Origin: Thermoplasmata archaeon
GTDB taxonomy: Archaea; Thermoplasmatota; Penumbrarchaeia; JAEHCK01
Assembly: GCA_020696345.1 (NCBI GenBank)
Contig: JAEHCK010000011.1
Span: forward strand, 213-64,212
Direction of reading: 5' to 3'
DNA: 64,000 nucleotides
Shown: positions 6,036-61,956 of the stretch, one piece after another
Layout of the letters: each line of letters begins with the position of its first letter
Numbering within the stretch: position 1 is the first letter of the stretch
Notes under the pieces: model-generated
Databases searched by the model: none
What the model saw: only the letters and a program-made list of their open reading frames with translations
What the model was told of the DNA's origin: nothing
Made by a program: the position numbers and the translations under genes

Positions 6036-6318
6036 CGGGGAATTATTGATTGAATATCGCTGGGGACATTTGAAATTGGAAATTTTAAATTGTAAAATGC
6101 AAAATAACGGTTTTGTTCCGCGGTTTAGTTTGTCGGTGGCGAGATTTCCCCTACCAAAAATTTTATATTTGCTCAAACCTAATGATATCTATTCTCATTT
6201 GCAATTCGAGGCTAATAATATTCTCTGAAACAATGATGAACTTCATTATCAAGAGACTGGGGTAAATCAGTAATTCATTTTAAATTATACCTTATTGTTG
6301 GAAAACGGGTCGGTAATC

Positions 6319-28396: not shown

Positions 28397-29157
28397 ATCG
28401 TGATGAACTGAAAAGACACATCGGAATAACCGGTTACTCGTTGGGACAAGTGGAAAAAGATTATTTTCAGCATATGATTCTTGGTGCATTATCAAGAAGA
28501 GCTGGTGGAGGGTTGGTGTTCAAGGGAGGCACAGCATTACAAAAACTTGGTATTATACCCCGGTTCAGTGAAGACTTGGACTTCACTGCACGATATGATC
28601 CAAAGATACAAAAGTTAAAAGATTATATTTTAAGGGTTATCCATAATTATAATTTCTTGGCCGAGGCAAACAATTTTATTGACGATGAGAGAACAGCTGG
28701 TTTTCGAATTAAGATACAGGGTCCACTCTTTCGCAACAGACAAGGATTATGTACTATCAGAATAGAGATTAGCAAAAGAGAGTCAGTGATATCAATCCCT
28801 GAAAATAAAGAATTCAATCCACCATATCTTGATATACTGCCATATTCTTTGAATATCATGCATAAGGAAGAAATTCTTGCTGAAAAGATTCGTGCAATTT
28901 ATTCTAGGCATAAGGCACGAGACCTTTATGATATTTACAAACTCTTAGAGATAGGAACAATTTACAATATCGATCTAGCTAATGAAAAATTGGATTATTA
29001 CAATCTTCAATTCGATACTGGATCATTCATAGAAAATTGTGAGAAATTAAAACCAGATTGGGAGCGGGACCTACAAAGCTTAATGCAAAATATCGTACCA
29101 TATAATAATGTCTTGAATGTTATTAAGGAAAGACTTTTGAAAGATCAGAAACTATAA
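28393..29157 (+). CDS. abiEii: AbiEii/AbiGii-family nucleotidyltransferase toxin (DUF1814-like)
   Basis: Motifs EKDYFQHMILGAL, LVFKGGTALQKL and RFSEDLDF are typical of this family. 254 aa. Confidence 0.82.
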   Translation: MNRDELKRHIGITGYSLGQVEKDYFQHMILGALSRRAGGGLVFKGGTALQKLGIIPRFSEDLDFTARYDPKIQKLKDYILRVIHNYNFLAEANNFIDDERTAGFRIKIQGPLFRNRQGLCTIRIEISKRESVISIPENKEFNPPYLDILPYSLNIMHKEEILAEKIRAIYSRHKARDLYDIYKLLEIGTIYNIDLANEKLDYYNLQFDTGSFIENCEKLKPDWERDLQSLMQNIVPYNNVLNVIKERLLKDQKL

Positions 29158-38350: not shown

Positions 38351-38607
38351 AAGAATTCTGAATTAATTGTAATGCATTTTTAAGAATTCTTAGTTCCAGA
38401 CAATTTTTTATGAAAAATTGTTGAGGTTTAAAATTTGACTTATCAATTTGCTCTAGCAAATTTTTCTAAAGGTATAAATTCCGAATCTAATTACATAATT
38501 ATAGAAAGAATTTATAGCTCGAGACCATTTTCGTAAGAAAATTGTCGAAGCTTTGAAAAACTAAAAAGTTTTTCAATGTAGAATAATTTTTCTCTAGAAA
38601 ATTGTTC
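38351..38607. repeat. Train of seven short AT-rich hairpins (7-9 bp stems)
   Basis: AAGAATTC/GAATTCTT 38351-38391; CAATTTTT/AAAAATTG 38401-38420; AATTTGC/GCAAATT 38445-38462; TATAAATTC/GAATTTATA 38473-38516; GACCATTTT/AAAATTGTC 38523-38546; TTGAAAAAC/GTTTTTCAA 38553-38576; GAATAATTTTC/GAAAATTGTTC 38581-38607. Confidence 0.7.
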
Positions 38608-38690
38608 CAATATCCCAAGCAACGATCAAGCACATTTTACCAACAACTTAATTACCCCCTTTATTATTTATACACTTGAAGGTGAAAATC

Positions 38691-41600: not shown

Positions 41601-42662
41601 CATATGCCAGCACCGAAAGGGTTTGTTCTCGTGGACGATCTGGACCCACTCGACAATAATTTTACCACCCATGACCAAAACCCGTCGTTCACATGGCTGC
41701 CGCCCATGGCCAACCCGCCCGATGACATGGAATATGTCTTTAAGGTCTGTGAAGGATCAGATAACTCCGGTGAAAAAGTGTTTGAGGACACCGTATTGAC
41801 CACCGAGGTTTCGGTTGATAAACCACTGGAATTTCATCAAATATATTATGCCGAGGTATTCGCACAATTGGCTGATGGCAATGCCTCTATGAAAGCGGGT
41901 CTTACCTTTGAATTGACCAACCATGCCCCAGAGGCGCCAGTTATAGCAATTACTCCAGGATCGCCAAAAACCACATCAATACTGAATTGTACGGTCCTAA
42001 ATGAGAGTTTCGATCATGAGAATGATCGTATCGAATATTCATACCTATGGTTCAAGAACGGTCACGCACAAGTAGACTATACAAATTTAACCGAGATCAC
42101 GTCGGACGCCACCACAAAAGGCGAACGCTGGCGGTGTACTGTGTTACCCAATGATGGTATAGACCAAGGGATCGGCGGAAGTATTGAAGTATTGATAGGT
42201 AACAGCCCGCCCACCATCAAGATCGACGTACCAGTATCCGGTAAAGAGTACCAGGACAATGAGGTTATTAATATCAAATTTACGATCCATGACCCGGATG
42301 CGGGTGATATCGAGCATATTCAATACATAGTATATGCAAACGAGCTGAAACATAAGATAAGAACGGGATATGTGGATTCCAACAACGGTATTGTAGAATT
42401 TGCCACTTACCTGGCTGAGGGCACACATAATTTGACATTCAACATATCCGATGGTGAGACCAGTATCGAGGTATATCTGGAAGTGAAAGTTTCAGGCCAC
42501 CAGACCGAAGATCTTAACAACCTGATGTTACAGCTCATCTATGGGATCGTGATCATAGTGGTCATCTTACTAATTTTCTTTCTGGCACTACTGACACGGG
42601 TGCGGAATATGAAGAAAGAAGATAAAGCGGAAGATAAAGCAGAAGTTGATGAAGAGGAATAA
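38691..42662 (+). CDS. Giant surface protein with a BNR/Asp-box (sialidase-like) beta-propeller, Ig-like domains, TM and acidic tail
   Basis: GGTGA lies 6 nt before ATG 38691 (the ORF track starts at TTG 38676). Asp-boxes ITNSTDGFNWSS, SSANGITWSE, ITNSSDGITWGV, NTTDGVNWSA. TM (IYGIVIIVVILLIFFLALL). Tail KKEDKAEDKAEVDEEE. Confidence 0.85.
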   Translation: MRLMRRGVLVLFCSIFLILVSLTYPLIKFDITADSKVQTFHDGTDEKIVSVPDFDTSFYIEVPTTADALEATMNVSFVDFDGLYPINPILRMGTSIDPVWMKPLWEYKNTGYGALGHQYSFTSGAIEDELVYDEATKEDEVTIFLPASAHVRSAKINLTGIEYDCWSKDVLELNVEPDGTGDYEPDMTVFNDQLFTVYRSYNDVVTNASDADIVITNSTDGFNWSSGYEITSRPDSIPPYNYSLTSADWRPVLEQFKNRLYCAWESNGTSTSGPDHDILLRSSANGITWSEPIVNVSDLWEDTYSVNPGIKNDWTADMAVFKNKLWLVWVSNNTGSNSGFSTSIGDIMITNSSDGITWGVPKDLVKGDNWYTNDLSPKLTVFNNSLYAVWVSNTTKLAHNDELDFDIVYRNTTDGVNWSALKTLNPNDNDYLFGKGSVDHQPVLLSHDNKLYCAWMSAATQYTSGVDFDIVLGYTSNGTFDSENITHMEVSDEKNNYYEHSPQLTVFEDRLYIIWVSEVAGNTGNSEILVRYLDLDLDLNPANNHLSMIQQVNPPDNGGKDYWPKVSVFKNKLFATWVSNDTKTGTGKDKDIILTHLTTSHLPLKIGLDVGGDGTWDIAKATQLDEQITEFDLTSYFNNVLTNNTWQDNNSKTTSYGFTMSEIPLNVQFSGPGKILAQDLHIYYNCTFQVKDFSKKLNEYITSHPGEATSNNTIKIPFTLTVPVSTKGKIKVSDVSVIFDHKPSINIIEPPEDGLTISEPVFRIQWSDFDPDDNAKISLYYDTDAHGFDGKVIATNLSEDGDLDENYFDWAWWNTEELRAGGTYHIYANITDGRNYYLNYSEGPLKIPLINITNFIDLQLVEPDGVDDDAWDAVVIQWASYNYWPDQTANIALYYDTDDNGFDGLPIDINNDSKVDDQDLINMTGEHGQGTIIWNISGLPQGSSVFIYGKITDHWNISYSNYSSGPITRLHMPAPKGFVLVDDLDPLDNNFTTHDQNPSFTWLPPMANPPDDMEYVFKVCEGSDNSGEKVFEDTVLTTEVSVDKPLEFHQIYYAEVFAQLADGNASMKAGLTFELTNHAPEAPVIAITPGSPKTTSILNCTVLNESFDHENDRIEYSYLWFKNGHAQVDYTNLTEITSDATTKGERWRCTVLPNDGIDQGIGGSIEVLIGNSPPTIKIDVPVSGKEYQDNEVINIKFTIHDPDAGDIEHIQYIVYANELKHKIRTGYVDSNNGIVEFATYLAEGTHNLTFNISDGETSIEVYLEVKVSGHQTEDLNNLMLQLIYGIVIIVVILLIFFLALLTRVRNMKKEDKAEDKAEVDEEE

Positions 42663-43586: not shown

Positions 43587-46500
43587 TTGAAAAAGAGATT
43601 AATACATAAATTGATCACTTTTAGTTTCATTATATTTATAATTATTTCAAATGCTCAATTTTTTGTTTCAACAAATAATAATAGATATGAGTTCAATGAA
43701 AATTTGGAATTATTCAAATCCGAACAGAGATCCGCTAATTTTAATAACAAATTCCAAGAATCAAGTGGATCAAGATATTCACCATATCAAACAAAATATA
43801 TTGAAGACAACTTTTTCAACGAGTCAAAAATTGATTTTAAGGAAAACGTACTTATTGATACTTCATTAGGTGAGATAACGATATTAGAACCAATGATACC
43901 TTTTAATAAGACATATTATAAAGACGGAGGTGGAACAGGTCGGTCGATCCAGCAAACATCCGATGGTGGATATATCATTGCAAGCACATCAAATGATGCC
44001 ATTTTAACCAAAATAGATAAAAACGGCAATCTATCGTGGCGAAAAAGCTTTGGGGGGTATGACACAGATATTGGATATTTTGCAGCTGAAACAACAGATA
44101 AAGGTTTTATTTTATTCGGATCGACGTATTCCTATGGAGCGGGTAGTTCTGATGGATTATTAATTAAGACCGATAAACTTGGCAATCTAATTTGGGAATC
44201 CACATTTGGGGGTATTAGCGTTGATCTAATACGCACAGGTCAACAAACCTCGGATGGAGGTTATATTGCTGTTGGTATAAGTAAAGTTGAAGATAGTGCA
44301 CCACAGAATTTATGGTTAGTTAAAACTGATGATATGGGTAACGTGGAATGGAATAAAAGGTATGGTGGACAATATACAGATGAGGGATATTGGGTACAAC
44401 AGACGTCGGATGAGGGGTACATCATTACTGGTTCAACCATATCTTATGCAACTGGATCTGGTCGTACCTGGTTAATAAAAACGGATGATTCAGGAAATGA
44501 AGAATGGAATACAAGCTTTGAAGGATATCAAGGTGATGTTGGACATTATGTTCAAGAAACCTCAGAAGGTGGATATATAATCACAGGTACAAATAAAAGC
44601 ATCTACCATGGAACAGGGAAAAGTGACGTAGCTCTTATTAAAACTAATAGCACAGGTGTTGTCGAATGGCGAAGCATTTTTGAAAGCATAACTGATGATT
44701 CAGGGCATACAGTCCATCAGACCTCAGATAATGGATATATTATTGGTGGTGGCATCGATGGTGATAAGTATCATTACATGTGTTTAATAAAAACAAATGA
44801 AACTGGCCATGTAATGTGGGATAAGAAATTTTATGGTAAAGAAGAATATTATCCAACATTTGCCCAACCAACCAAGGATGATGGATATATAATTGTTGGT
44901 ACAACAAAAATCTACGGAGATGGCGGAAGTGATACTTGGGTAATCAAAACAGATAGCACAGGAAATATGTATCCAATTAGCTTTATGAATGGTACTATAA
45001 TTTCACGAAATTTGCTAGAAAATGATAGTGCAAATTCAATAAACTTCTTTAATTGTACAGCATCAATTTACCCAGATACAAATATTGATGTTCAATTTTC
45101 GCAAGATAATATTACTTGGTATAATTCTTTAGGCATTTTAGATGACTTTGATCGATTGGGTGATAGATTAAATAATATCGATCTAAAATCTCTAGATTGG
45201 AGTGGAAATGAATTCTATTACAAATTGAACTTTTCAACTCATGATGTTGACTATATTCCAAATATCCTAAATATAAACATATCATTTACGATAAATATTG
45301 ATTTACCAGCTTATACAAAAGATAAACCAGATCTTAGCATTGATAAAAGAGATATTAGAACGAGTTCTAATTATCAGAAGAGCATACTAGTCTATGATTC
45401 GATAGTTTTTAGAATTATAATCCATAATATTGGAAATGCTTCAGCTAACAATATAAAAGTCAAATTATGGGAAGGACATCCTGAGTCTGAAGATAGAAAG
45501 ATCATATCAACGTGGGATCATGATGAGTTACACCCAAACAAAGAAGTTGAACTATCAAGAACCCCGGGCTATCAATTTGATACCATTGGAGAACACTATA
45601 TTTATGCCGTAATTGATCCAGATAATTTAATTCTTGAAATGGATGAAGATAATAATATTGCTTTTAGAATAATAAATGTAACCCCAAGATTACCTGAACT
45701 TTTTATTCTGGAGGATATTAGAGATCAAGAAATAAAACCGTGGGTTTTTCGCAATGGTAAAAATGTCCAGACAGGAATATTACTTGATGGGGAAAAATAT
45801 TGGTTTAATTTCAATATTTCAAATATGGGACCTCGTCATGCTTTAAATTTTAATGTCTCAATATACCTAGATCATCTATTGAATGAATTGGATAAAATTT
45901 TTATTGAAGAAATATACGCTGAAAAACGTGAGTATAGTATTACTACAAAATCAATAATCGCTGATTTCTCTATTGAGTCAGATAATAATCATAAAATAAT
46001 AATTGTTATTGATCCAGATTATACTATTAAAGAACTAAACAAAGAAAATAACATATTAGAAATCCCACAGTGCTTTACAATTATACATCCAAAAGATGAT
46101 CCAGACCTTGATGGATGCGTGAATGAATGGGAGATATATTTAGAAACAGATCCGTTTAATAAAAGTTCGAAACCACTAGATACCGATAATGATGGAAAAC
46201 CAAATGGTGATGAAAATAATTCTCAACCTTGGATGGACTATGATGATGATAATGATAATTATAACGATGAAGATGAAAAAAATTCCAATACAGATCCATT
46301 AGATGATAATGATCATCCATCCAAACAAACTGATAAAAGTACTTTTATTGAAGAGAATCTTATTATAGTAATTTTCATACTTATTCTTATTTTTACAATC
46401 ATAATAATAATTTTAGTAAGGGGCAAATCAAAAACAATAGAACTAAAAGAAACAAAACTAAAAAAAATAAAACCAATAGAAATAGAACCAATAGAAATAG

Positions 46501-46796
46501 AACAATCATATAGTGAAAATATGACACCCCAACCACTTGAGCAACAAACCAATTATCAAACAAACGTCCTCTCCAGTCAAAAACATATAGGATATTTTCT
46601 AATTACATTGGGTTTATTAGTAGCTATTGTAGTTCCAATCGCAATAATTGTCCGTGGAGGAGTGGGAGAAACTAGGGGATTTACTTTATGTATGGCAGTC
46701 TTAGCTCCTTATGTATTGATAATTCATGGTTATCGGATTGTATCTGCTAAATGGCCGGTTAATACCTGGAGTTGGAATTTGGAACGAAAAACCTAA
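43587..46796 (+). CDS. Large surface protein: about 8 beta-propeller-like repeats, CARDB-like domains, TSP3-like acidic stalk, TM, and a cytoplasmic segment with two further TMs
   Basis: Repeats of the QTSDGGYII.G.T.S.G.G..D.WLIKTD..GN..W pattern. DLSIDKRDI...HNIGNASANNIKV (CARDB-like). QPWMDYDDDNDN. TM LIIVIFILILIFTIIIIILV. Strongly AT-rich codons. TTG start. Confidence 0.78.
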   Translation: MKKRLIHKLITFSFIIFIIISNAQFFVSTNNNRYEFNENLELFKSEQRSANFNNKFQESSGSRYSPYQTKYIEDNFFNESKIDFKENVLIDTSLGEITILEPMIPFNKTYYKDGGGTGRSIQQTSDGGYIIASTSNDAILTKIDKNGNLSWRKSFGGYDTDIGYFAAETTDKGFILFGSTYSYGAGSSDGLLIKTDKLGNLIWESTFGGISVDLIRTGQQTSDGGYIAVGISKVEDSAPQNLWLVKTDDMGNVEWNKRYGGQYTDEGYWVQQTSDEGYIITGSTISYATGSGRTWLIKTDDSGNEEWNTSFEGYQGDVGHYVQETSEGGYIITGTNKSIYHGTGKSDVALIKTNSTGVVEWRSIFESITDDSGHTVHQTSDNGYIIGGGIDGDKYHYMCLIKTNETGHVMWDKKFYGKEEYYPTFAQPTKDDGYIIVGTTKIYGDGGSDTWVIKTDSTGNMYPISFMNGTIISRNLLENDSANSINFFNCTASIYPDTNIDVQFSQDNITWYNSLGILDDFDRLGDRLNNIDLKSLDWSGNEFYYKLNFSTHDVDYIPNILNINISFTINIDLPAYTKDKPDLSIDKRDIRTSSNYQKSILVYDSIVFRIIIHNIGNASANNIKVKLWEGHPESEDRKIISTWDHDELHPNKEVELSRTPGYQFDTIGEHYIYAVIDPDNLILEMDEDNNIAFRIINVTPRLPELFILEDIRDQEIKPWVFRNGKNVQTGILLDGEKYWFNFNISNMGPRHALNFNVSIYLDHLLNELDKIFIEEIYAEKREYSITTKSIIADFSIESDNNHKIIIVIDPDYTIKELNKENNILEIPQCFTIIHPKDDPDLDGCVNEWEIYLETDPFNKSSKPLDTDNDGKPNGDENNSQPWMDYDDDNDNYNDEDEKNSNTDPLDDNDHPSKQTDKSTFIEENLIIVIFILILIFTIIIIILVRGKSKTIELKETKLKKIKPIEIEPIEIEQSYSENMTPQPLEQQTNYQTNVLSSQKHIGYFLITLGLLVAIVVPIAIIVRGGVGETRGFTLCMAVLAPYVLIIHGYRIVSAKWPVNTWSWNLERKT

Positions 46797-48880: not shown

Positions 48881-49073
48881 CATTGGGTTTGGATAGAGGG
48901 TTGAAATATCATCGTCAAAACCCTCTTTCCTCTAACGATTCATATCACCAATTCTACACAGTGTCCTCTTCCCTCTTTCCTGTTTGAAATAATAGCTAAT
49001 TATAATAATTATTGGTTGGATCAACTTGGATAGTTATTCTATGCGAAGCGTTCCACAACATTTAAATAATCGT

Positions 49074-49103
49074 GTAAAAAGTGTTCCAATCTTTATTTTA
49101 ATA
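49074..49103 (+). promoter_or_regulatory. Shared box AAAAAGTGTTCCAAT plus TATA-like TTTATTTTA
   Basis: 15-nt identity with 53286-53300. Located about 45-70 nt upstream of ATG 49145. Confidence 0.35.
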
Positions 49104-49144
49104 CTAACGATCATTTTTTTATTAATTAATTTGAGGTGACTGAC

Positions 49145-52100
49145 ATGCGGCGTACAGTTTCTGTTATTGTTGTGATCTTTTTATTATTGGGTGGATTTAT
49201 ATTACCGATATCTTTCGACTTGACTTCGCAAGATGCATCGGCAGAGGATTGGTATATGTCCATAGATGTGGATACCACCTGGAACACGGATATGGCCATC
49301 AAACAGGATATTTATATTAGCGCTGGCAAAACATTAACGATAGACCCGGGCGTTACAATTCTATTCGACGGAGCATTCAGTTTAATTGTAAATAGCACGG
49401 GCAAGTTGGTAGCGAACGGTGGCCAAACACAACCGATAACCTTTGACCGAACAGGAGGCAGTAAATGGGCAGGACTGGAAGTTCTTAATAATGCCAGGTC
49501 CGAGCTTGACTGGTGCACGTTTAATAATGCAAATAATGGGATCATTTTACAAAATAATCAATTTTATACCAACATCACGAACAGCTCATTCTCTAATTGT
49601 ATACAATATTTAAATATTAAAACTTCAAAGGTCAATATAACCAGCACGAAGTTTGAAGGTAAAGCATTTGATAAAAACCCAAACCAGATCCTGGGCAAGA
49701 TCGACATGGACAGCACCTCTGAAATATATATCCAGTATTTTGTTAACATATATACGGTGAACGGTTCGTCAGATCTGACCATGCGGGCGCGGATGACGTA
49801 CCCGGTTTCGAATGTGAACGTGGACCTAGATAATTTTGTTCAGGACCGGCTATTCGGTACCACGGGTTCTAATGGTACCGTTTCGAACATGCGTGCAACT
49901 TCATTGAAGATCAATGGCTCGGCAAAAACCCGTGATTATCAATTTAGTATTTATAAAATGGAAGTGTCCGATAAGTGGGACAGCACAATGCGTGAGGCCT
50001 TTGGAATTTCTCGTAATTCTACGAATTTTAATTTATCTTCAATAGTGAATCAATCATTTTCGGGTGATGATCTTGAAGTCGATTCAAATCTTCATATTAA
50101 TGCATTCTTCATGTTCAAATATCCACCTGTGATCACCTCAGCTTCAAATAGGGTGACCGTTTACGAGGATGCTCCAAAAACAGACAGTTTCATATTCTTT
50201 GATAATGATGACGATTCCGATCTCGAAAGTAATATCACTATTAATATTACCGACCAGCACGGGAAAACAATATATAGTGATGAGCCGAATACAACAGACA
50301 CATGGATCAGCTGGTATAATGAAACAGAAGAGTTAATTTTCTACAGGACCATCGAATCACCCGACACACCGGCTGGCCCGGGGGATTACAAGGCCAAAGT
50401 AGATGAGACCATTTACGTAACAATAACAGACCTATTGGGCCAGAAGGCAGAACACAGCATAATAATCGAGTATCATAATGTTCCGGACAAGCCGATGATC
50501 ACCGGGATACCGGTAACCATACCAGTGGTCGAGGATCAGGTGAAATATATCCCGATCTCGGTCTCCGATAACGATAACGGTACTGCCGACATATATATCT
50601 CAAGCAATAGTGAATATGTGAAATATGTCTACAATGATACCAATGACCAGAGTTTATATTTCAAGTTCCCGAACGAGTTTGGTGCGGACGGGTCACAACA
50701 GTTGGTGAACATCTCGGCAACCGATAACTGCTCGGATGAGGTTACATATAATTTTAATGTGCTGTTCAGCCAAACTCCCGACCGGCCGAAGATCATTGGC
50801 ACGATCCCGAACAAGATCGGTACGGAAACCGACTGGACCCCGGAGCTTGTATTGAATGATTATTGGTTCGACCCCGACCCAGATGATAACGCGAACACTT
50901 TGGATTGGTATGTGTCGGGTGTGAATGCCAAATACTTTGAGGTCTTCGGTGCGAACCAAACGGCCGTTTCACCGTTAAGCTTCAATTACATCTATGATAT
51001 TGATCTGGGTGGTGCCCGAAGCCAGGGTCAGATCGTGGATGATGTCACGATCTGGCTTGAGGATAAGGACGGGTTGAAAGTACATCAAAATATTAAATTG
51101 ATAGTGACCGGAACAAACCAGCAACCAAGCCTGCACAAGGTCAAGATCAATAATACCCAATTTTCGGTACAGCCGGAAGCCGGTGATAATGACCAAACAT
51201 ACAAGTTCATGATCGAATACAAGGACCGCGACGGTTTAAAAGGTGATGCACCCGAGCATGTCAGGGTAATTATCGATAGCGAGCAGCATGATATGCTCGA
51301 ACAAAACCCTGATGACGAAGATCATATCGATGGCAAGTTATATTATTACGAAACCAAGCTGAGTATCGGCACGCACCAGCATTATTTCGTATGCTCCGAC
51401 AGCGCTCTCTCTTCTCGTCAGCCCAAACTGGACGACGATCCGAACATAATATCGTTGCCAGTAGTGAGCTCAAAGATCAATATCGGTAAATTCAAAAGTA
51501 ATGACGGCAATTTCATAGCGAAAATAGCGTATACCGGTAATAAAGGCAGTGCATCGATCACGATTACGGCTACGGATGTTGTTTCTGTGCCTGCGGCCGC
51601 ATACGAGGAGCGCAAGGGCGATATCGGTGTATATTTCGTGATCAAAACCCAAAATATGAGCTCGATCATCTGGGTGGATATTTCGGTCAAGTTTGGTTCC
51701 GGGTTTGACAATTATGGTTCTCGTTGGTTGAAGAAGGACGATATGGATTTGGCTTATCTGGAGAATACCACCTGGCAGCCGTTGATACAGGAATCGAACA
51801 TGTTTCTTGAAGATGATATGAATATGCTGGGATGTAATTTCACGCGCACGAACATTTTAAGCGCTTTACTCATCGATAACAACACGGCCATGTTCACGGT
51901 GATCGGCTGGCTGGATGCGGATAGCGATGGGTATTTCAATGACGAGGATGATTTTCCGTTCGACACCGCAGCCAGTGAAGATAGGGACACCGACGGCTCA
52001 CCCGATAAATGGAACCCTGGAAAAAACCAAAAAGACTCCACAACAGAACCGAAGTTACACCTGGACAAGTTCCCAGACGACCCCGCAGCCAGCCTGGATG

Positions 52101-53041
52101 ATGACGAAGACGGCTATCCGGACGCATGGAACCCCGGTATGGGCTATAATGATTCCACATCGGACCCCAAACTGAACCTGGATATATGGCCCGGCGACCC
52201 GGAAATGAGTTTGGATACAGATCGCGACGGTTATGCCGATGGCGATAAATTGAACACGAAACCATGGATGGACCGTGATGACGACAACGATGGCATGCCC
52301 GATGCATGGGAGATCAAGTGGCTGGAATATGCCATCGAACATAATATATCCTATCATTTTAACCCCAAGGATCGGACCGATGGTGCGTATGACTGGGATT
52401 CGGACGGGCGCAATAATACCAAGGAGTATCTGGAAAACACCAATCCGTTCAAAAAAGATACGCCAAAGAAAGATGAAGGTATGCTTTCGGGTTCGGCAGG
52501 TTGGGCGGCTGTGATCGCCATGGTGGTGATCATCGTTATTTTAATACTTTTCATGTACACCAAAATGCATCGTGACCAGCTGCTGGAGCACAAGGTACGG
52601 GCGAAGATCCTGGACTATATTAACGGGCACCCGGGCACACATTACCGCAAGATCTTGAGCGAGCTGGACATGCAGATGGGCACATTGACCCATCACCTGA
52701 ACATGCTCGAACGGCAGAAATATATCAAATCACTCCAGGACAGCATGTACCGACGGTTCTATCCGGTGGGGACGCCCATTAAAACCGGCTTGTTATTGAC
52801 CGAGGTTCAAGAGCGCATTTTGGGCACAATGAAAAAAAGCCCCGGCATGTCACAGGCCGAGATCGCGCGCAGGCTTAACGTGGCACGTAAGGTGGTGAAT
52901 TATCATATGAAGATACTCTCGGATGCGGACTTTGCGCGTGTGGAGTTGGTGGGGCGGGCGAGCAGGTGTTATTACCTGGATGGCCTGGAGTTTCCGAAAA
53001 AACCCAAACCCACTATGCTCAGAGGAAGACGTGCTGCATAA
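49145..53041 (+). CDS. Receptor-like giant membrane protein: beta-helix / cadherin-like ectodomain, TSP3 stalk, TM, cytoplasmic tandem winged-helix HTH
   Basis: GAGGTGA lies 7 nt before ATG 49145 (the ORF track starts at GTG 49136). Signal anchor VSVIVVIFLLLGGFILPI. TSP3-like DADSDGYFNDEDD, DRDTDGSPD, DDDEDGYPDAW, DTDRDGYADGD, DDDNDGMPDAWE. TM AAVIAMVVIIVILILFMY. wHTH 1 HYRKILSELDMQMGTLTHHLNMLERQKYIKS. wHTH 2 MSQAEIARRLNVARKVVNYHMKILSDADF. Confidence 0.85.
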   Translation: MRRTVSVIVVIFLLLGGFILPISFDLTSQDASAEDWYMSIDVDTTWNTDMAIKQDIYISAGKTLTIDPGVTILFDGAFSLIVNSTGKLVANGGQTQPITFDRTGGSKWAGLEVLNNARSELDWCTFNNANNGIILQNNQFYTNITNSSFSNCIQYLNIKTSKVNITSTKFEGKAFDKNPNQILGKIDMDSTSEIYIQYFVNIYTVNGSSDLTMRARMTYPVSNVNVDLDNFVQDRLFGTTGSNGTVSNMRATSLKINGSAKTRDYQFSIYKMEVSDKWDSTMREAFGISRNSTNFNLSSIVNQSFSGDDLEVDSNLHINAFFMFKYPPVITSASNRVTVYEDAPKTDSFIFFDNDDDSDLESNITINITDQHGKTIYSDEPNTTDTWISWYNETEELIFYRTIESPDTPAGPGDYKAKVDETIYVTITDLLGQKAEHSIIIEYHNVPDKPMITGIPVTIPVVEDQVKYIPISVSDNDNGTADIYISSNSEYVKYVYNDTNDQSLYFKFPNEFGADGSQQLVNISATDNCSDEVTYNFNVLFSQTPDRPKIIGTIPNKIGTETDWTPELVLNDYWFDPDPDDNANTLDWYVSGVNAKYFEVFGANQTAVSPLSFNYIYDIDLGGARSQGQIVDDVTIWLEDKDGLKVHQNIKLIVTGTNQQPSLHKVKINNTQFSVQPEAGDNDQTYKFMIEYKDRDGLKGDAPEHVRVIIDSEQHDMLEQNPDDEDHIDGKLYYYETKLSIGTHQHYFVCSDSALSSRQPKLDDDPNIISLPVVSSKINIGKFKSNDGNFIAKIAYTGNKGSASITITATDVVSVPAAAYEERKGDIGVYFVIKTQNMSSIIWVDISVKFGSGFDNYGSRWLKKDDMDLAYLENTTWQPLIQESNMFLEDDMNMLGCNFTRTNILSALLIDNNTAMFTVIGWLDADSDGYFNDEDDFPFDTAASEDRDTDGSPDKWNPGKNQKDSTTEPKLHLDKFPDDPAASLDDDEDGYPDAWNPGMGYNDSTSDPKLNLDIWPGDPEMSLDTDRDGYADGDKLNTKPWMDRDDDNDGMPDAWEIKWLEYAIEHNISYHFNPKDRTDGAYDWDSDGRNNTKEYLENTNPFKKDTPKKDEGMLSGSAGWAAVIAMVVIIVILILFMYTKMHRDQLLEHKVRAKILDYINGHPGTHYRKILSELDMQMGTLTHHLNMLERQKYIKSLQDSMYRRFYPVGTPIKTGLLLTEVQERILGTMKKSPGMSQAEIARRLNVARKVVNYHMKILSDADFARVELVGRASRCYYLDGLEFPKKPKPTMLRGRRAA

Positions 53042-53282
53042 AAGCGATTTTTTATCGTTGAGTATAGCTAATTGCTGCTAAAATGTGTGTGAGTTATGGG
53101 GGTTATGGGAGTTACGGGAGTTTAAGAATTATTGGTATTTGGAGCATTGGAGCTTAATTTTCAAATTTACAATTTCAAATTTCCAATGACCCAAGCACTA
53201 TATTATCAAACCACGATCCATAATTCTATCAATATTAATAGATCTTTGATCACCGCTTTGTTCCAATATGCTTATATAATTG

Positions 53283-53314
53283 TCAAAAAAGTGTTCCAAT
53301 ATTTACTTTTATAG
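53283..53314 (+). promoter_or_regulatory. Shared box AAAAAGTGTTCCAAT plus TATA-like TTTACTTTTATA
   Basis: Same 15-mer as at 49076-49090. Located about 65-90 nt upstream of ATG 53378. A second GTTCCAAT lies at about 53261. Confidence 0.35.
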
Positions 53315-53377
53315 GGGAGAGCATATTTTTTAATAACCTGAATTGGAAACCTGAGTTTCCGATCAAGGAGGGTTAAT

Positions 53378-54520
53378 ATGGTGAAAAGTATAAAAAAAGT
53401 GAAAAAAAACAAGAAACGGATGAATAAAATATTGTACCTGATCGTGGGGTTGGTGATCGGGATCTTTATCTTCACGGCGGGCACCATGGCCATGATGGTC
53501 AAAGACGAGATCAAGGAGAAAGACCCAGGGCCGCCGCCAGAGCCTGTCAATGAAGCACACCTGTTCGTGGAGGATGTCTACTTTATGATGGACGGCAGTA
53601 GAGCGGCTGTTGATGGAGACGGAATTGAAAGAGTGGATATAATTACCACCGTATATATCACAAATGACGGTCTTGCCGAGGCAAAGAATGTGAAGATCAC
53701 TGCCTGGCCAATGGATGAGGACAAGAACATGGGCAAGGATAAAGTTGATGAGACCGTGGGAATAATACCCATCCAAAAGACATCGGAGATCGAGCTTACC
53801 ATCAGAGTACCGCCCGGTGCACGGCATAATGTTGATTTCCTGATCTTCGAGCGCGATCTATTGATCCTTCGCGGCAGCGGCTCGGTGGTGACCGAGGGTA
53901 CATTTAAAAATACACCCAAATACCAGACCAATGAGGTCAAAGGCACGGTGAACGATACCGACTACGACGGCATACCCGATGACTGGGAGCGGTACTACGG
54001 CTTGGACCCGAACGACCTAAACGATGCACACGATGATCCGGATGGGGACGGCGTGAGTAATCTGGAGGAGTATCGTGCTAACACGGAACCGAGAGATCCA
54101 AAAGTTGGTGGTTGTGAAAGTGATGATGATAAAGAAGAAAAAGGATTATCAAGCCTTGATAATGGGGCAGTAGTCGGTGGTCTGGGCATATTTATTGCAA
54201 TAATTGTCATAATCATCATCATTATTGCAGTATTTGCATCATCAAAGCATGAGCATCATAACAAGGTCAACAATAATCCCCAAGCATATACAAACCAATA
54301 TACACCGCCGAGCATATTGAATGTACAGCCAGGCCAAGTCATACCTAAACGCTGCTCACGGTGCGGTGGCTGGGTGGTGAACGATGCTTGCACACTCTGC
54401 GGCAGTAGATATCCACCAGCAACCACACCAACTGCTCCAGAGCCACAAATAGTTTCTGAAACAGAGGATGTTTCTGATACCAAAGAAGAAAATGCCGAGT
54501 GGGAAAGTGATCAGAAATAA
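53378..54520 (+). CDS. Receptor-like membrane protein: CARDB-like domain, TSP3 stalk, TM, cytoplasmic zinc ribbon
   Basis: AGGAGGG SD. Signal anchor ILYLIVGLVIGIFIFTAGTMAMM. DTDYDGIPDDWE, DPDGDGVSNLEEY. ESDDDKEEKGLSSLD. TM GLGIFIAIIVIIIIIIAVF. CSRCGG...CTLCG. Confidence 0.8.
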   Translation: MVKSIKKVKKNKKRMNKILYLIVGLVIGIFIFTAGTMAMMVKDEIKEKDPGPPPEPVNEAHLFVEDVYFMMDGSRAAVDGDGIERVDIITTVYITNDGLAEAKNVKITAWPMDEDKNMGKDKVDETVGIIPIQKTSEIELTIRVPPGARHNVDFLIFERDLLILRGSGSVVTEGTFKNTPKYQTNEVKGTVNDTDYDGIPDDWERYYGLDPNDLNDAHDDPDGDGVSNLEEYRANTEPRDPKVGGCESDDDKEEKGLSSLDNGAVVGGLGIFIAIIVIIIIIIAVFASSKHEHHNKVNNNPQAYTNQYTPPSILNVQPGQVIPKRCSRCGGWVVNDACTLCGSRYPPATTPTAPEPQIVSETEDVSDTKEENAEWESDQK

Positions 54521-54773
54521 TTATTTATTTATCGCAAATGCTTATAGGTGAAATATAATGATAATAAAAATGCCTAAATTAAGGATGAAGGATGTGTACG
54601 CTCACAGATAGGGATGCAGGACTCGCATACTCGGTTCCCTCGCTTGAGGGTTTCGGGTCTTGTCAATAAGCTTTCAACCCGCCTCCCGCATTCCAAATCC
54701 CGCATCCCTAACGACATTATCATAATTCAAATAATGAAAAGAAATTTATAAAACATTTCATTGGTGTTCATAA

Positions 54774-55745
54774 ATGATATCAAACTACAAGATCATTCAA
54801 AGAAATTTAACTATCGTTCTAGTTTTAATCCTTATCTTAGTTTGCTCCATTGTACCTGTACAAGCTCAACAGGATTCAGATACCGACAGCATGCCGGACA
54901 GCTGGGAGACTACCAACGGTCTGGATGCTAATAATTCTGCCGATGCAGATAATGACACCGACGCCGACGGGTTGACCAATAAAGAAGAATACGATAATGG
55001 CACCGACCCGAACGATCCGGATACCGACGGTGACGGCATGCCCGATGGCTGGGAGGTACAATACGGTCTTGATCCAAATGATGAAACCGATGTTGAAGAG
55101 GATCCGGATAAAGATGGATTTAATAACTTAGATGAATATAAAAGAAATGGAGATCCAAAAGATCCAAGAAAACCGGCTGGTGGTGCTGAGTCTGATGATG
55201 ATAAAGAAGAAAAAGGAATGAGTTCTTTAGACACCAGCCCTTTCTGTCTCTTGCTTTTAATCCCCGGAATCGTCATACTGCTCGTCATCATATTCGTGTA
55301 TACCAAGATGCGCCGCGAACGGCTCCTGGAGCATAAGGTACGGGGTGATATATTCGCCCATATCAACAAAAACCCCGGCGTGCACTACCGCGGCATCATG
55401 AACGAGTTGGGCCTGCACATGGGCACGCTCACACATCACCTGAACATGCTCGAGACACAGCGGTACATAAAATCGTACCAGGACGGCATGTACCGCCGGT
55501 TCTACCCCATCGATCACAAGATCGGCACTGGCCTGATACTCACCGAAATTCAGCACAAGATCTTGCAAGCCATACACGATAGCCCGGGGCTGTCGCAGGT
55601 GGAGATCGCGGGTAAAGTAAACCAGAACCGCAAGATCGTGCACTACCATGTGAAATTGCTCTCCGATGCCGGGTTCGTGCATGTGGAGCAGGCCGGCCGC
55701 GAGAGCAGGTGCTATTATGCAGGTGGGTTGAGAATGGGGGGATAA
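54774..55745 (+). CDS. Short receptor-like membrane protein: TSP3 stalk only, TM, cytoplasmic tandem winged-helix HTH (paralog of the 49145..53041 C-terminus)
   Basis: Signal peptide LTIVLVLILILVCSIVPVQA. DSDTDSMPDSWE, DNDTDADGLTNKEEY, DPDTDGDGMPDGWE. ESDDDKEEKGMSSLD. TM LLLLIPGIVILLVIIFVY. wHTH HYRGIMNELGLHMGTLTHHLNMLETQRYIKS and LSQVEIAGKVNQNRKIVHYHVKLLSDAGF. Confidence 0.85.
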   Translation: MISNYKIIQRNLTIVLVLILILVCSIVPVQAQQDSDTDSMPDSWETTNGLDANNSADADNDTDADGLTNKEEYDNGTDPNDPDTDGDGMPDGWEVQYGLDPNDETDVEEDPDKDGFNNLDEYKRNGDPKDPRKPAGGAESDDDKEEKGMSSLDTSPFCLLLLIPGIVILLVIIFVYTKMRRERLLEHKVRGDIFAHINKNPGVHYRGIMNELGLHMGTLTHHLNMLETQRYIKSYQDGMYRRFYPIDHKIGTGLILTEIQHKILQAIHDSPGLSQVEIAGKVNQNRKIVHYHVKLLSDAGFVHVEQAGRESRCYYAGGLRMGG

Positions 55746-55746
55746 T

Positions 55747-56124
55747 TTGATGAATTGATGCTTAACAGAAGCCAGGTTGGGTTGATGTTGAACAGAAACC
55801 AGGCTTAATTAATACTGAACAGAAGCCAAGCTGAGTTGATGTTGAATAGAAACCAGGTTGAGTTGACGCTGAACAGAAGCCTGGTTGAGTTGATGTTGAA
55901 CAGAAACCGGCTTCTGTCAATCAACAATGAATCAAGGTTTCTGTCAATCAACAATGAATCAAGGTTTCTGTCAATCAACAATTAATCCCGGCTTCTGTCA
56001 ATCAACAATTAATCCCGGCTTCTATCAATCAACAATGAATCTCGGCTTCTATCAATCAACAATGAATCATGGCTACTGTCAATCAATAACTCATCACGGC
56101 TACTGCCAATCAACAAATCTACAT
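55747..56124. repeat. Two abutting tandem arrays of exactly 27-bp units: 6 A-type units (55747-55908), then 8 B-type units (55909-56124)
   Basis: No indels across 14 units. A units end ACAGAAGCC or ACAGAAACC in strict alternation. B units start with the exact reverse complements GGCTTCTGT or GGTTTCTGT. Confidence 0.9.
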
Positions 56125-56245
56125 ATTATCAATTAATTCAATCTCCATTGTGCTTAAGATCGTAGATGAGGCATAATTATTAATAATGTAAAAAAATTCC
56201 ATCTCAACGATTTACGATAGATAACCATACAATTAGGTGAGATAA

Positions 56246-57664: not shown

Positions 57665-59668
57665 TCAATTCTTTTTTCGTTTTGTATGATAAAAATAAAC
57701 AACCATGGCGCCAGCCAGGATCAGTATTAGCACAACTGAGAGCATGACCGGTGACGCACCCACCTCATCTTTTCTCCGCGGTTTATTCTGTGTGGCAAGC
57801 TCCATGAAGTGTTCAAGCGAGGTCTGTACACCGTTTATCGCACGTACCTTAAGGGTATGATCACCGTTCTCGAGGCCAGTGGTATCAAGTTCATACGTCC
57901 AATTTAGATAGATACCATTCACTTCTTTTGTTTTGACCTTCTTCCAGCTGCCATTATCCACTGCAATTTCTATGGCCTCGATCTCAATGCCAGTTTTCGA
58001 GAACGCTACACCACCAATAGTAGTGGTGCCAGTAGTAATGTTTTCCACTCCCATTTCGAGCTCTGTGATGAAGCATTGAAGATTTACATCTATTATATCC
58101 ACATCAGTAATGCTGGCGCTGACCATAACTGCTTTGTAAGCATCCACCGCACCCCAGCCAAAATCCTTGTTCCAGAACGGGTCAAGTTCGGGTATTGTTG
58201 CCTTGCCGCGGCGCTCGGCTGTAAGGTGAAGGATCTCCTTAATTACTTCACTGGTAAGTTTTGGATTAGCCTCGAGCATCATTGCACATATTCCAGCTAC
58301 TACCGGTGTTGCATACGATGTACCGCTTCCGCGGCTGCCGTAGCCGTTCCCCGAACCATCACCGATCGGGTCGAACTGTACCTGCATGATATGGGTCCCC
58401 GGTGCGGTAATATCCGGCTTCAACTCGTTATACGGGTTGCCGTCGTTGTTATCGTGTCTTGGCCCGCGGCTCGAGTATTCGGCTATTATATCATCGGACC
58501 GGTCGATGGTGTCCAGGTCATCTGACGCCGCCACAGAGATACCGTTGGAGGCCGCAGAAAATCCGCGAAAACCATCATTGTTCGGCCCTGAATTACCTGC
58601 AGCATGGCACACGATCACACCGGTATCCGCGAGCCGGTCCAGCGCAGCCGAGTATGCATCAGAACCGTCCGACGGGCTGTCAGTATCAATGCCCCAGGAC
58701 AGTGAGAGTATATCAATACCTTTATTCTCGGGATCCGCTCCAGCCCATGAGTCATCTTTGTGTTTAATGATCCACTCGATGCCTTCCAGAGAAGCATCCA
58801 GGAACTTGACCGGCATCGGTCCCTCACCTGGTGCGTAACCGAACACCGTGCCTATTCGTACATCAACCACCTTAGCCTCCGGCGCCGCACCCATGTATTT
58901 CCCCTCGGGTGCGCCCGTACCAATGGCGATACCCGTGCATGTGGTCCCGTGGCCGTTGGTATCATCAGCGTCAAAGGTGCCATCTTGAAATATACCTAAG
59001 GGATCAGGTTTGCTGATATCAGCCCCGCCAACCCATTTACCTGTCAGGCTCGGGTGGGCATTATCCACACCCGTGTCCATTACCGCAATATTGACGCCTA
59101 GACCCTGATACCCAAGCTCCCAGGCGGTGAACGGCGAGTATTCATTTGACTCGCGTGCCTTCACCGCGGGCGTGGCGATATCCGAGTACAGTACCGGCCT
59201 GCCGGGGTTCTCCACACGCAGGACGCCGGGCAGTCCAGCGATGGTCCCTATTATTGGCACGGGTACAGCGAGCAATGAAACCATATCCAGGTACCAGAAG
59301 ATGTTGCCGATCTCCACACCAAGGTCGCGTAATGTGGTAATGTCATCTTGGGTTAGTCTATCTTTGAACATCACTATTGTATCCAACCGTTGGTAACCCT
59401 TATGGATCCAGGTGTCAAGATCATCCGAGATCTTGTTGTTATTCCGATCACGTGTTGATATTAATGGTGTAGTGGTTTCATCTTGGTTGTACCTGTCCAT
59501 GCAGCCATTGCTTGTGGGTGCATGGTCGGTTGTATTCTCCGTTAGATCGATGGTAACTTCACGGCTGCGGGCGGGGATGGTAAAAAATACCGAATTGATC
59601 GGCAGTAAAATTAATAATACCAGACACGCTGCGGCAATCTGTTGGGTGATCTTGACCTCAGTCCTCAT
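57665..59668 (-). CDS. Membrane-anchored subtilisin-like (S8) serine protease
   Basis: Signal anchor. I9-like propeptide. Catalytic Asp (AVMDTGVDNAHPSL), His (NGHGTTCTGIA), Ser (GSGTSYATPVVAG). Ig-like domain. C-terminal TM (VMLSVVLILILAGAMVVYFY). Confidence 0.9.
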   Translation of the reverse strand: MRTEVKITQQIAAACLVLLILLPINSVFFTIPARSREVTIDLTENTTDHAPTSNGCMDRYNQDETTTPLISTRDRNNNKISDDLDTWIHKGYQRLDTIVMFKDRLTQDDITTLRDLGVEIGNIFWYLDMVSLLAVPVPIIGTIAGLPGVLRVENPGRPVLYSDIATPAVKARESNEYSPFTAWELGYQGLGVNIAVMDTGVDNAHPSLTGKWVGGADISKPDPLGIFQDGTFDADDTNGHGTTCTGIAIGTGAPEGKYMGAAPEAKVVDVRIGTVFGYAPGEGPMPVKFLDASLEGIEWIIKHKDDSWAGADPENKGIDILSLSWGIDTDSPSDGSDAYSAALDRLADTGVIVCHAAGNSGPNNDGFRGFSAASNGISVAASDDLDTIDRSDDIIAEYSSRGPRHDNNDGNPYNELKPDITAPGTHIMQVQFDPIGDGSGNGYGSRGSGTSYATPVVAGICAMMLEANPKLTSEVIKEILHLTAERRGKATIPELDPFWNKDFGWGAVDAYKAVMVSASITDVDIIDVNLQCFITELEMGVENITTGTTTIGGVAFSKTGIEIEAIEIAVDNGSWKKVKTKEVNGIYLNWTYELDTTGLENGDHTLKVRAINGVQTSLEHFMELATQNKPRRKDEVGASPVMLSVVLILILAGAMVVYFYHTKRKKN

Positions 59669-61719: not shown

Positions 61720-61956
61720 TTAATGGGATGTTGATGGATCGTGGCCGTGATGTGTTATTGATGGGCAGATGCCTTGATTCATTGTCGATTGAACGAAAGG
61801 TAGTTGTGATAGTAAATCAACGGATCTTCCTAGCATTAATTCATTTCGGTATCTACTCAGCACCAACCCAGCACGGCATCTATTCAGCATCAACCCATCC
61901 AAGTATCTGTTCAGCATAAATTCATCACGGTATCTGTTCAATATCAATTCATTCAT
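61720..61956. repeat. Second, inverted copy of the 27-bp A/B tandem-array element
   Basis: Read on the minus strand: 5 A-type units (61822-61956, phased exactly every 27 nt), one degenerate unit, then 2-3 B-type units. The B end aligns with 56044-56124 at roughly 75 percent identity by eye. Confidence 0.85.

Follow-up and report, generated by a model that had tools for sequence, protein, structure and literature searches.

The window analysed here, a stretch of 64,000 nucleotides (nt) from a Thermoplasmata archaeon, contains three consecutive genes on the + strand, designated A, B and C, which share one layout, as the preliminary description had stated: an N-terminal signal or anchor, an ectodomain, a TSP3-like stalk and one transmembrane (TM) helix, as judged from open reading frames (ORFs), hydropathy and motifs. 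Gene A (49145..53041, +) encodes a giant single-pass receptor-like protein of 1298 amino acids (aa) from the ATG at 49145; the ORF call uses an alternative GTG start at 49136, giving 1301 aa, and public NCBI-derived data carry the 1298-aa ATG form. The N-terminal hydrophobic signal/anchor of A (49154..49210, +; aa 7-25 of the 1301-aa form; hydropathy 2.72) has KR on its N side and acidic residues after it. A beta-rich ectodomain (49211..51895, +; approximately aa 26-920) leads to a TSP3-like Ca-binding stalk (51914..52417, +; aa 927-1094), in which TSP3_bac (PF18884, gathering threshold 25 bits) is unreported despite six DxDxDG repeats found by motif scan. The TM helix (52499..52555, +; aa 1122-1140; hydropathy 3.03) is followed by four K/R within 15 residues and by a tandem winged helix-turn-helix (wHTH) module, predicted to be cytoplasmic (52580..52978, +; wHTH1 at approximately aa 1149-1211, wHTH2 at approximately aa 1221-1281).

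Gene B (53378..54520, +; 380 aa) has a signal anchor (aa 18-36), a DUF7490 ectodomain (aa 82-170), TSP3 repeats (aa 193-231) and a TM helix (aa 269-287). Its DUF7490 match (PF24318, gathering threshold 27 bits) passes at 27.6 bits, and the ortholog at locus L026 scores 43.8 bits; the stalk has two DxDxDG repeats and reaches 16.4 bits for TSP3_bac, below the cut-off. Gene C (54774..55745, +; 323 aa) is the stalk-only member, with a signal peptide (aa 11-29), three TSP3 repeats (aa 34-121; TSP3_bac passes at 38.5 bits) that align by BLAST with the stalk region of A, and a TM helix (aa 157-175, nt 55242-55298, +) detected by hydropathy, which peaks at 3.0-3.4 at the TM helices of A and C. It ends in wHTH1 (aa 185-245, nt 55326-55508, +) and wHTH2 (aa 258-315, nt 55545-55718, +), and A and C hold the only copies of the module in the window.

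The ectodomain of A had been described as beta-helix/cadherin-like. It has no match in Pfam or NCBIfam, and hhalign detected no similarity between the profile of A orthologs and the window's own NosD/Beta_helix/Cadherin_5 protein; what survives of the description is a weak, low-confidence structural likeness to cadherins. AlphaFold2 (AF2) modelling from a 3-sequence alignment gave a pLDDT of 49, the confident part being limited to residues ~10-145 (pLDDT 70-89), which form a short-strand, solenoid-like structure. Foldseek matched this model to tandem cadherin ectodomains and S-layer proteins, matches that are a hint only because of the low pLDDT. For the ectodomain, cadherin/Ig-like repeats behind a solenoid-like N-terminal segment are the probable arrangement; DNDN and NVPDxP motifs are invariant in the alignment of A orthologs.

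The metagenome-type origin of the window's assembly raised the concern that A and C could be artefacts of assembly or frameshift in which a surface-protein gene and a small regulator gene had been fused; nothing was found in favour of this. In an independent Logan assembly, B and C are identical, the exact C protein being encoded on its contig, and so is the 3' part of A. Full-length, colinear A orthologs are present in two other metagenomes (P0012, 49% identity; P0014, 45%) with the genomic context kept and the TM junction colinear in the alignment, and at L026 genes A, B and C are again found together, flanked by the same housekeeping genes. Since the same architecture also occurs in 135 of 140 family matches listed and in ~20 Thermoplasmatota loci of metagenome-assembled genomes (MAGs), the fusions are genuine and the chance of an artefact practically negligible. 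P0012 (1293 aa) was also considered as the 1293-aa ORF of the window, an identification that was rejected; it is the ortholog from another metagenome.

The C-terminal end of A and C is an ArsR/MarR-type winged-helix pair. The two wHTH domains claimed for each protein were confirmed by PF24266 (threshold 31 bits) and HTH_24/HTH_20 matches above the Pfam cut-offs: the A module matches PF24266 at 1e-13 (51.6 bits), HTH_20 at 5e-13 and HTH_24 at 1.3e-12, and wHTH1 of C matches PF24266 (HTH_HVO_0163_N) at 1.3e-10 (41.6 bits). The two modules had been called nearly identical, which overstates their likeness, as they are 57% identical (44% for A and C over a 313-residue BLAST alignment), but the recognition helix of wHTH1, MGTLTHHLNMLE, is indeed the same in both. 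The NCBIfam metalloregulator model NF033788 (HTH_metalloreg, cut-off 55 bits) fails, with 30.3 bits for A and 37.4 bits for C, the likeness being confined to the HTH core; the only conserved Cys of the module lies in the wing of wHTH2. Domain wHTH1 aligns with PDB 5DUK, a "putative DNA binding protein" (E = 4e-9), including the Y.R.Y wing, so a structure of the family-type wHTH1 is already solved.

A profile search with the module returned 758 clusters at E<=1e-30. Among the matches listed with at least 40 upstream residues, the TM stands directly before the C-terminal module in the 135 of 140 mentioned above, and all 83 family members scanned match PF24266. Ectodomains range from 33 to 1326 aa and contain domains of extracellular kinds (TSP3, CARDB, PKD, FG-GAP, Big, He_PIG), so the proposal that one cytoplasmic module is wired to very different ectodomains is true across the family. 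The module has a pI above 8 in all 153 sequences (median 9.77, net charge +9; 9.74 in A), the ectodomains are acidic (median pI 4.34), and the net charge around the TM is -1.2 outside and +2.05 inside, a positive-inside pattern. The charge asymmetry, the pI contrast and the extracellular domain types all point to the N-out/C-in topology predicted earlier. The close relatives of A and C all come from Thermoplasmatota MAGs; the GTDB scan behind this used very specific peptide patterns and places close relatives rather than the wider limits of the family. Members are often encoded beside giant surface-protein genes.

The AF2 model of the module (pLDDT 86.4) contains two units of three helices and two strands, and its pTM of 0.52 leaves the mutual orientation of the two domains undefined. 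Single domains superpose on MarR, SlyA, ArsR, CadC and CzrA at 1.2-2.5 A. The best whole-module Foldseek matches are RPC34, ESCRT-II, ScpB and SelB, tandem-WH proteins that are mainly protein scaffolds or RNA binders, which counts against a membrane-anchored regulator and in favour of an adaptor, in which the tandem wHTH would serve surface adhesins either as a cytoplasmic tether forming a non-specific link between nucleoid and envelope, or as a protein dock in the manner of ScpB/ESCRT-II. A large family with adhesin-like ectodomains, often next to giant surface-protein genes, would suit such a role, and the high, uniform basicity also suits sequence-independent DNA binding. However, both domains match the DNA-binding ArsR, MarR and HTH_20/24 families and retain the HL..L signature of the recognition helix and the GR..Y signature of the wing, and a specific conserved promoter box, described below, accompanies the module genes. 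We consider the adaptor quite unlikely and infer from the sequences that the modules of A and C bind DNA.

The junction between TM and module differs from what had been proposed. The stretch YTKM[HR]R..LLEHKVR, described as a separate conserved post-TM linker, is helix 1 of wHTH1: the HTH_20 profile begins at residue 185 of C, and in the AF2 model the TM and helix 1 form one unbroken helix. The distance from TM to wHTH1 is ~8 residues and of fixed length, and in 87 sequences the earliest charged residue beyond the TM falls at a constant position of the profile. With such spacing the DNA would need to lie against the membrane, a point against action from the membrane. The sterically awkward access could instead favour regulated proteolysis of the Notch/SREBP or anti-sigma kind, in which ligand binding or mechanical pull would lead to shedding and intramembrane cleavage, and the freed tandem wHTH would reach the nucleoid and regulate transcription. 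Adhesin/cadherin-like ectodomains could bear force, and a membrane-anchored S8 subtilase gene (57665-59668) lies 2 kb downstream, but this neighbour is missing from the syntenic locus L026, and apart from it neither intramembrane proteases (S2P, rhomboid or others) nor site-1 proteases were found to be encoded in the window or by the annotated conserved neighbours. TM segments of the family contain 1.4% Pro and 0.1% Asn and thus have no conserved helix-breaking signature; neither a protease component of the type used in regulated intramembrane proteolysis (RIP) nor a cleavage motif was identified in the window, the annotated conserved neighbours or the TM segments. The rigidly conserved junction suits conformational coupling more than a disposable anchor, and we regard release by proteolysis, for which a protease encoded elsewhere could serve, as unlikely.

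The middle gene, B, had been counted as a third DNA-binding receptor, carrying a zinc ribbon in place of the wHTH pair. It does keep the stalk, the TM and, in its predicted cytoplasmic tail, a CxxC-x8-CxxC motif found by motif scan (aa 326-341, nt 54353-54400, +), but this ribbon has no Pfam match, no DNA-binding domain matches anywhere in B, and the motif is restricted to one clade, so that part of the claim was not sustained. The ribbon is present in the closer clade only (the window, L002, L025, L026 and L027); the B-like genes at L006, L010 and L022 have none. A B-like gene lies directly upstream of a C-type gene at L002, L006, L010, L022, L026 and L027, whereas at L025 it stands after the A ortholog; seven loci have B as the upstream partner of a stalk-only C-type gene, and B and C have a genome-specific juxtamembrane peptide in common. 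This synteny and these shared peptides are the whole basis of the proposed partnership with C, which is a better reading of B than that of a DNA-binding receptor.

The promoters of A, B and their orthologs carry a GTTCCAA box beside a TATA-like element. The promoter of A (49050..49106, +; PWM score 40.5 bits) has a weak box, GTTCCAC, at 49050-49056 and, 33 bp downstream of it, the main box TGTTCCAAT (49082-49090, +), which adjoins the TATA-like TTTATTTTAATA. In the promoter of B(-C) (53259..53316, +), two TGTTCCAAT boxes (53259-53267 and 53292-53300) lie 33 bp apart, and a TATA-like element follows each. The same 9-mer occurs at 38603..38611 (+; PWM 19.7 bits), 73 nt upstream of the ORF of a 1328-aa surface protein (38676-42662) and with no clear TATA-like element after it; this gene is possibly in the same regulon as A and B. 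Boxes were found upstream of 13/29 TTR/B-like genes against 5/195 in the comparison (odds ratio 31, p = 1e-9; TTRs, transmembrane transcription regulators, are discussed below), and no GTTCCAA box was found upstream of the more distant TTRs of the L008-L020 group. A motif-only metagenome scan yielded just two matches, one directly upstream of a new B-C pair and the other inside an unrelated coding region, and its support is therefore thin. The box lies at the BRE position, and its reader could be a TFB paralog or another factor, the link between the box and A, B and C being one of co-occurrence. A sigma-70 promoter/terminator scan was uninformative, as the host is an archaeon.

The architecture had been put forward as one not known to be described for archaeal ArsR-like wHTH proteins with giant ectodomains. 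TTRs, one-component proteins combining TM and DNA-binding domain, were surveyed in 2023 in 404 archaeal species (Demey et al. 2023, PMC10269533), which tempers the novelty. In that survey, a domain census of mostly isolate/reference genomes, single-pass forms dominate, archaea have ~4 per genome, and HTH_20 and HTH_24 account for 635 and 601 examples in bacteria and archaea together (PMC10269533). A TTR has at least one predicted TM plus a DNA-binding domain predicted in the same chain; A and C carry both, and B has no DNA-binding domain. The class is thus known, PF24266 exists and annotation pipelines already name such proteins MarR/ArsR-family regulators, but the variant itself is new: the census does not describe this combination of C-terminal tandem wHTH, type-I orientation with signal peptide, giant adhesin-like ectodomains, promoter box and DUF7490 partner. 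The A/C family is a large, uncharacterised Thermoplasmatota branch of the TTR class, and what is new here is the reading of B as partner of C, the identity of the linker as helix 1 of wHTH1 continuous with the TM, and the GTTCCAA promoter box. The literature searched for COG3398, for arCOG membrane-associated transcriptional regulators and for HVO_0163 yielded nothing specific, and a paper on ESCRT evolution mentions wH domains in Thermoplasmata, the family being absent from it.

Among archaeal relatives in concept, ArnR/ArnR1 of Sulfolobus acidocaldarius are experimentally characterised membrane-bound HTH one-component regulators of cell-surface structures, found in Sulfolobales/Desulfurococcales, with an N-terminal HTH, a cytoplasmic HAMP and sensor region, two C-terminal TMs and no ectodomain (PMC6396743). 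In A and C, a signal peptide comes first and the HTH pair last, at the C-terminus and preceded by a single TM. Sequence signatures and fold of the wHTH are shared with ArsR/SmtB, MarR and Haloferax HVO_0163 (Pfam PF24266), the last termed "ArsR-type" (PMC10294847). In contrast to A and C, which are membrane-anchored and have two wHTH domains in one chain, ArsR/SmtB and MarR proteins form soluble homodimers whose chains carry one wHTH each, together with ligand or metal sites; PDB 5DUK is a single isolated 77-aa domain, unlike the tandem module. Notch, SREBP, ATF6 and anti-sigma RIP systems share the concept of a large ectodomain that one TM joins to a cytoplasmic transcription effector but are non-homologous. 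ToxR, CadC and TcpP are bacterial single-pass regulators that combine a cytoplasmic winged helix with a sensor outside the cytoplasm; some depend on a membrane partner encoded alongside (ToxS, TcpH), a need that resembles the possible role of B for C. These regulators have an N-terminal cytoplasmic DNA-binding domain with a single OmpR-type wHTH (Trans_reg_C), a long linker, a C-terminal periplasmic sensor and no signal peptide; compared with them, A and C have reversed order and topology, no Trans_reg_C match, a tandem of ArsR/MarR type and a ~8-residue tether.

We propose that A and C are type-I single-pass membrane-anchored regulators that would signal without cleavage, a model which as a whole has, in our judgement, an even chance of being right. 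It builds on the architecture, conservation, charge asymmetry, wHTH fold, synteny and promoter motif, and adds to them the predicted topology and a presumed DNA binding, B-C partnership, box recognition and cleavage-free signalling. A Sec-type signal would bring the ectodomain, which is variable, acidic, adhesin-like and Ca-binding, to the outside of the cell. The single TM helix would continue unbroken into helix 1 of wHTH1, and wHTH1 and wHTH2, both basic and of ArsR/MarR type, would lie in the cytoplasm. Two wHTH per chain would make a built-in pseudo-dimer, enabling one anchored receptor to bind DNA, and through the rigid, fixed-length junction DNA binding would respond to what happens at the ectodomain (Ca2+, ligand or surface contact, clustering). 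Having no sensor of its own, C probably works with the DUF7490 protein B, a cooperation proposed because B is conserved just upstream and shares the stalk and juxtamembrane peptide of C. The likely targets would be promoters with a GTTCCAA box by the TATA element, those of their own operons and of neighbouring giant surface-protein genes. Membrane-bound regulators acting from the membrane are documented (PMC10269533, PMC6396743), in agreement with the membrane-anchored model.

A more far-reaching and doubtful extension is that the family forms a contact-/Ca2+-sensing system specific to Thermoplasmatota, with a cadherin/adhesin ectodomain, a rigid rod, a pseudo-dimer with a DUF7490 co-receptor and a GTTCCAA regulon of giant surface proteins. 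If true, it would be an archaeal one-polypeptide counterpart of Notch or ToxRS surface-to-gene signalling, multiplied into numerous paralogs that differ in input but share one output. Almost nothing is known about how uncultured Thermoplasmatota transduce signals, and two-component systems are few in archaea. With hundreds of sequence clusters, several paralogs per genome and adhesin-type ectodomains of up to ~1300 residues coupled directly to a DNA-binding-type module, the A/C family may be a major route linking surface events to gene expression. The soluble ~150-residue module, the conserved partner gene and the candidate operator offer testable handles, and the analysis corrects the annotation, since pipelines label these 1300-residue surface receptors merely "MarR family regulator". 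Finally, a 27-nt repeat array after gene C was considered as a family-linked element and rejected; none of the related loci carries it and further copies lie elsewhere in the window, so it is treated as a separate repeat family.

Gene A (49136-53041, + strand) is a 1301-aa ORF starting from GTG, and its form in public data has 1298 aa and starts at the ATG at 49145. It is followed on the same strand by gene B (53378-54520, +; 380-aa ORF) and gene C (54774-55745, +; 323-aa ORF). The layout proposed for the three in the preliminary description is present in each: by hydropathy, every protein starts with a signal or anchor segment and has a single further transmembrane (TM) helix (residues 1122-1140 in A, 269-287 in B and 157-175 in C), preceded by acidic residues and followed by K/R residues, and A, B and C contain 6, 2 and 3 DxDxDG repeats, respectively. 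Among the three, TSP3_bac clears the Pfam cut-off in C only. The two winged-helix (wHTH) domains proposed for A, and likewise for C, were also recovered by Pfam, with PF24266 (HTH_HVO_0163_N) scoring 51.6 bits in A and 41.6 bits in C (cut-off 31), and HTH_24/HTH_20/MarR-type matches C-terminal to it. This TM-proximal wHTH1 + wHTH2 pair (the module) is 57% identical between A and C, and the wHTH1 recognition helix is identical. The B ectodomain is DUF7490 and its tail carries a CxxC-x8-CxxC motif; B is 50% identical to C across the stalk and juxtamembrane region.

An assembly or frameshift artefact, raised earlier as a possible source of the fusions, was excluded. Identical B and C genes and an identical 3' part of A occur in the same order in an independent Logan assembly, and two colinear, full-length A orthologs from two other metagenomes (P0012 and P0014) share 49% and 45% identity with A across the whole ectodomain. 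An exhaustive profile search with the module, counted as cluster representatives, identified 10,396 proteins at E<=1e-3, 4,980 at <=1e-10 and 758 at <=1e-30. Among the 150 best matches the module is C-terminal, the ectodomain spans 33-1326 residues, and a TM lies immediately N-terminal of the module in 135 of the 140 with >=40 upstream residues. A scan of species-representative genomes, which used very specific peptide patterns and does not delimit the wider family, confirmed 23 loci, of which 22 come from Thermoplasmata/Thermoplasmatota MAGs, several with two paralogs apiece; all 15 complete ORFs have the order signal, ectodomain, TM and module.

Three features of the family place the wHTH pair in the cytoplasm, and not outside the cell. 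The TM is flanked (15 residues on either side) by a net charge of -1.2 N-terminally and +2.05 C-terminally; the modules are basic in 153/153 cases (median pI 9.77, net +9), whereas the ectodomains are acidic (median pI 4.34); and the ectodomain types (TSP3, CARDB, PKD, FG-GAP, Big, He_PIG and CarboxypepD_reg) are extracellular. The AF2 model (pLDDT 86.4) has two canonical H-H-H-wing units, and helix 1 of wHTH1 forms one unbroken helix with the TM. The conserved post-TM segment described earlier as a linker does exist, but in this model it is helix 1 of wHTH1 and not a separate element. Most family members have their first post-TM charged residue at a fixed position, which leaves only about 8 residues between the membrane and wHTH1. 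Such a very short tether would favor a rival reading, release by regulated proteolysis; however, neither a cleavage signature nor a protease was found, with no intramembrane protease gene within the window or among the annotated conserved neighbours.

Single module domains superpose on MarR, SlyA, ArsR, CadC and CzrA at 1.2-2.5 A, and wHTH1 matches the solved structure 5DUK, which is 77 aa long and annotated as a "putative DNA binding protein". Conservation in the family is centred on ArsR-type scaffold positions (G.L..HL..LE, DG...RFY, YH...L and GR...C), with variable positions between them. The whole module resembles the tandem-WH proteins RPC34, ESCRT-II, ScpB and SelB; these scaffold-type matches are what speaks for a rival reading of the module as a non-transcriptional adaptor or nucleoid tether. 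The best-supported reading is that the A/C family comprises type-I single-pass transmembrane transcription regulators, in which the tandem wHTH would serve as a built-in pseudo-dimer. As a class, transmembrane transcription regulators have been described before: the HTH_20 and HTH_24 types were already counted, and archaea contribute 1,384 examples from 367 species (PMC10269533). The characterised archaeal membrane regulators ArnR and ArnR1 differ from the A/C family in architecture (PMC6396743). The wHTH1 family is already in Pfam, and annotation pipelines call the family proteins MarR/ArsR regulators. No description was found in the literature of the architecture in which a signal peptide precedes a giant adhesin-like ectodomain, a TSP3 stalk and a TM fused to a tandem wHTH, nor of the Thermoplasmatota expansion, the DUF7490 partner or the promoter box described below. 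The main value of the finding lies in the concrete experiments that it makes possible.

The A-B-C locus is conserved. The flanks of L026, a 160-kb contig, match those of the window, and its gene order is AAA_18 kinase, CDP-alcohol phosphatidyltransferase, A ortholog (1301 aa), an extra 684-aa PKD-containing member, DUF7490 B ortholog and C ortholog. A B-like gene lies immediately 5' of a C-type gene of the stalk-only kind in the window and in the related loci L002, L006, L010, L022, L026 and L027, and in L025 such a gene comes after the A ortholog; for C, which lacks a sensor, B may be a co-sensor. The B-like genes of the closer clade (window, L002, L025, L026 and L027) keep the zinc ribbon, and those of L006, L010 and L022 lack it. 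In the more distant syntenic loci L006 (2003-6385) and L022 (1830-6296), a giant protein upstream of the B-C pair has FG-GAP/Big domains, a TM near residue 1250 and a low-complexity cytoplasmic tail of about 200-230 residues. With a CxC...CPxC zinc ribbon, and no wHTH pair, at the end of this tail, the genes of the locus appear to have exchanged cytoplasmic output modules. A second arrangement is also conserved: in six other MAG loci (L008, L009, L011, L013, L017 and L020; e.g. L013 6909-13090), a family member of 530-650 aa is directly 5' of a DUF7948-SBBP-fn3 surface protein of about 1500 aa with a beta-propeller and a C-terminal TM.

The juxtamembrane peptide is nearly identical between B and C of one genome and different between genomes (ESDDDKEEKG.SSLD in the window, KSKEEGDGDDNS in L026), with local scores of 100-105 within and 18-43 between genomes. 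In nucleotides, B and C of the window share 88% identity over 40 nt (54106-54145 vs 55178-55217), and the B-C pair of L026 (14710-16888) has a stretch of 36 nt with 100% identity. Identity in the stalk DNA around these stretches is only 66-75%, which suggests gene conversion over short tracts or co-evolution/strong co-selection.

The 9-mer TGTTCCAAT has 7 copies in the window against 1.19 expected. Four copies are on the coding strand and upstream of a gene, at distances of 54-63 nt from A, 86 and 119 nt from B, and 73 nt from a 1328-aa surface-protein ORF. Next to a TATA-like element (AAAAG-TGTTCCAAT-N-TTTAnTTTTATAG), the box recurs 5' of A orthologs, B orthologs and further family members in L002, L003, L006, L007, L010, L014, L022, L025 and L026, and seven promoters, including that of A in the window, have a second box exactly 33 bp further upstream. 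The box occupies the BRE position. A PWM of the box gave 17 matches in the window and loci (5 of them not training sites) vs 0.1 in shuffles. Fifteen are intergenic and two overlap an ORF model or sit at a contig end; each of the 16 assignable matches precedes a family gene, a B-like gene or a neighbouring signal-peptide gene. Using a regex independent of the PWM, the box was found upstream of 7/8 B-like, 6/21 family and 5/195 other genes (odds ratio 31, p = 1e-9, B-like and family vs other), and 4 of these 5 others are immediate neighbours of family genes or part of the conserved L026 locus. When metagenome contigs were scanned with the motif alone, two matches were obtained, one directly 5' of a new B-C pair with a second box at -33. 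Box-bearing promoters, of the family's own operons and of surface-protein genes, are probable candidate targets of the family.

Directly 3' of the C stop codon (55751-56116) there are two head-to-head arrays of a 27-nt unit, the first with 5.7 copies of TGAGTTGATGCTGAACAGAAGCCAGGT and the second with 7.7 copies of roughly its reverse complement, forming an imperfect palindrome of about 365 nt with a predicted long hairpin (-116 kcal/mol, z = -7.3). A 69-aa ORF at 55927-56136 was rejected as a gene, being merely the translated repeat. The unit has no Rfam match and is absent from the related loci except for one copy in L024, which is the same sequence as the window; a third array (4.5 copies) occupies another intergenic region at 61832-61952. 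An upstream 1069-aa ORF (43587-46796) has a chassis like that of A, B and C: a signal, repeats of beta-propeller type, two stretches matching CARDB, TSP3-like DxDxDG repeats and a TM (926-944), followed by a cytoplasmic stretch of about 60 residues and 2-3 more hydrophobic segments, not wHTH. Giant putative surface proteins of 1293-1641 aa (6295-10584, 10774-14655, 19811-24736 and 38676-42662) are unusually frequent in the window, with NosD/Beta_helix-fn3-Cadherin_5, DUF7948-SBBP and other domains; the DUF7948-SBBP-type protein (19811-24736, - strand) has no adjoining family member. Typical archaeal housekeeping genes are found among the giants (Nop56/58, pyruvate:ferredoxin oxidoreductase, adenylate kinase, TrkAH and succinyl-CoA ligase). 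There is also an AbiEi antitoxin/AbiEii nucleotidyltransferase toxin pair (type IV toxin-antitoxin; 27662-29157), and two minus-strand tRNA genes (15-89 and 556-628) have a 34-nt tandem repeat of 3.1 copies (196-302) between them.
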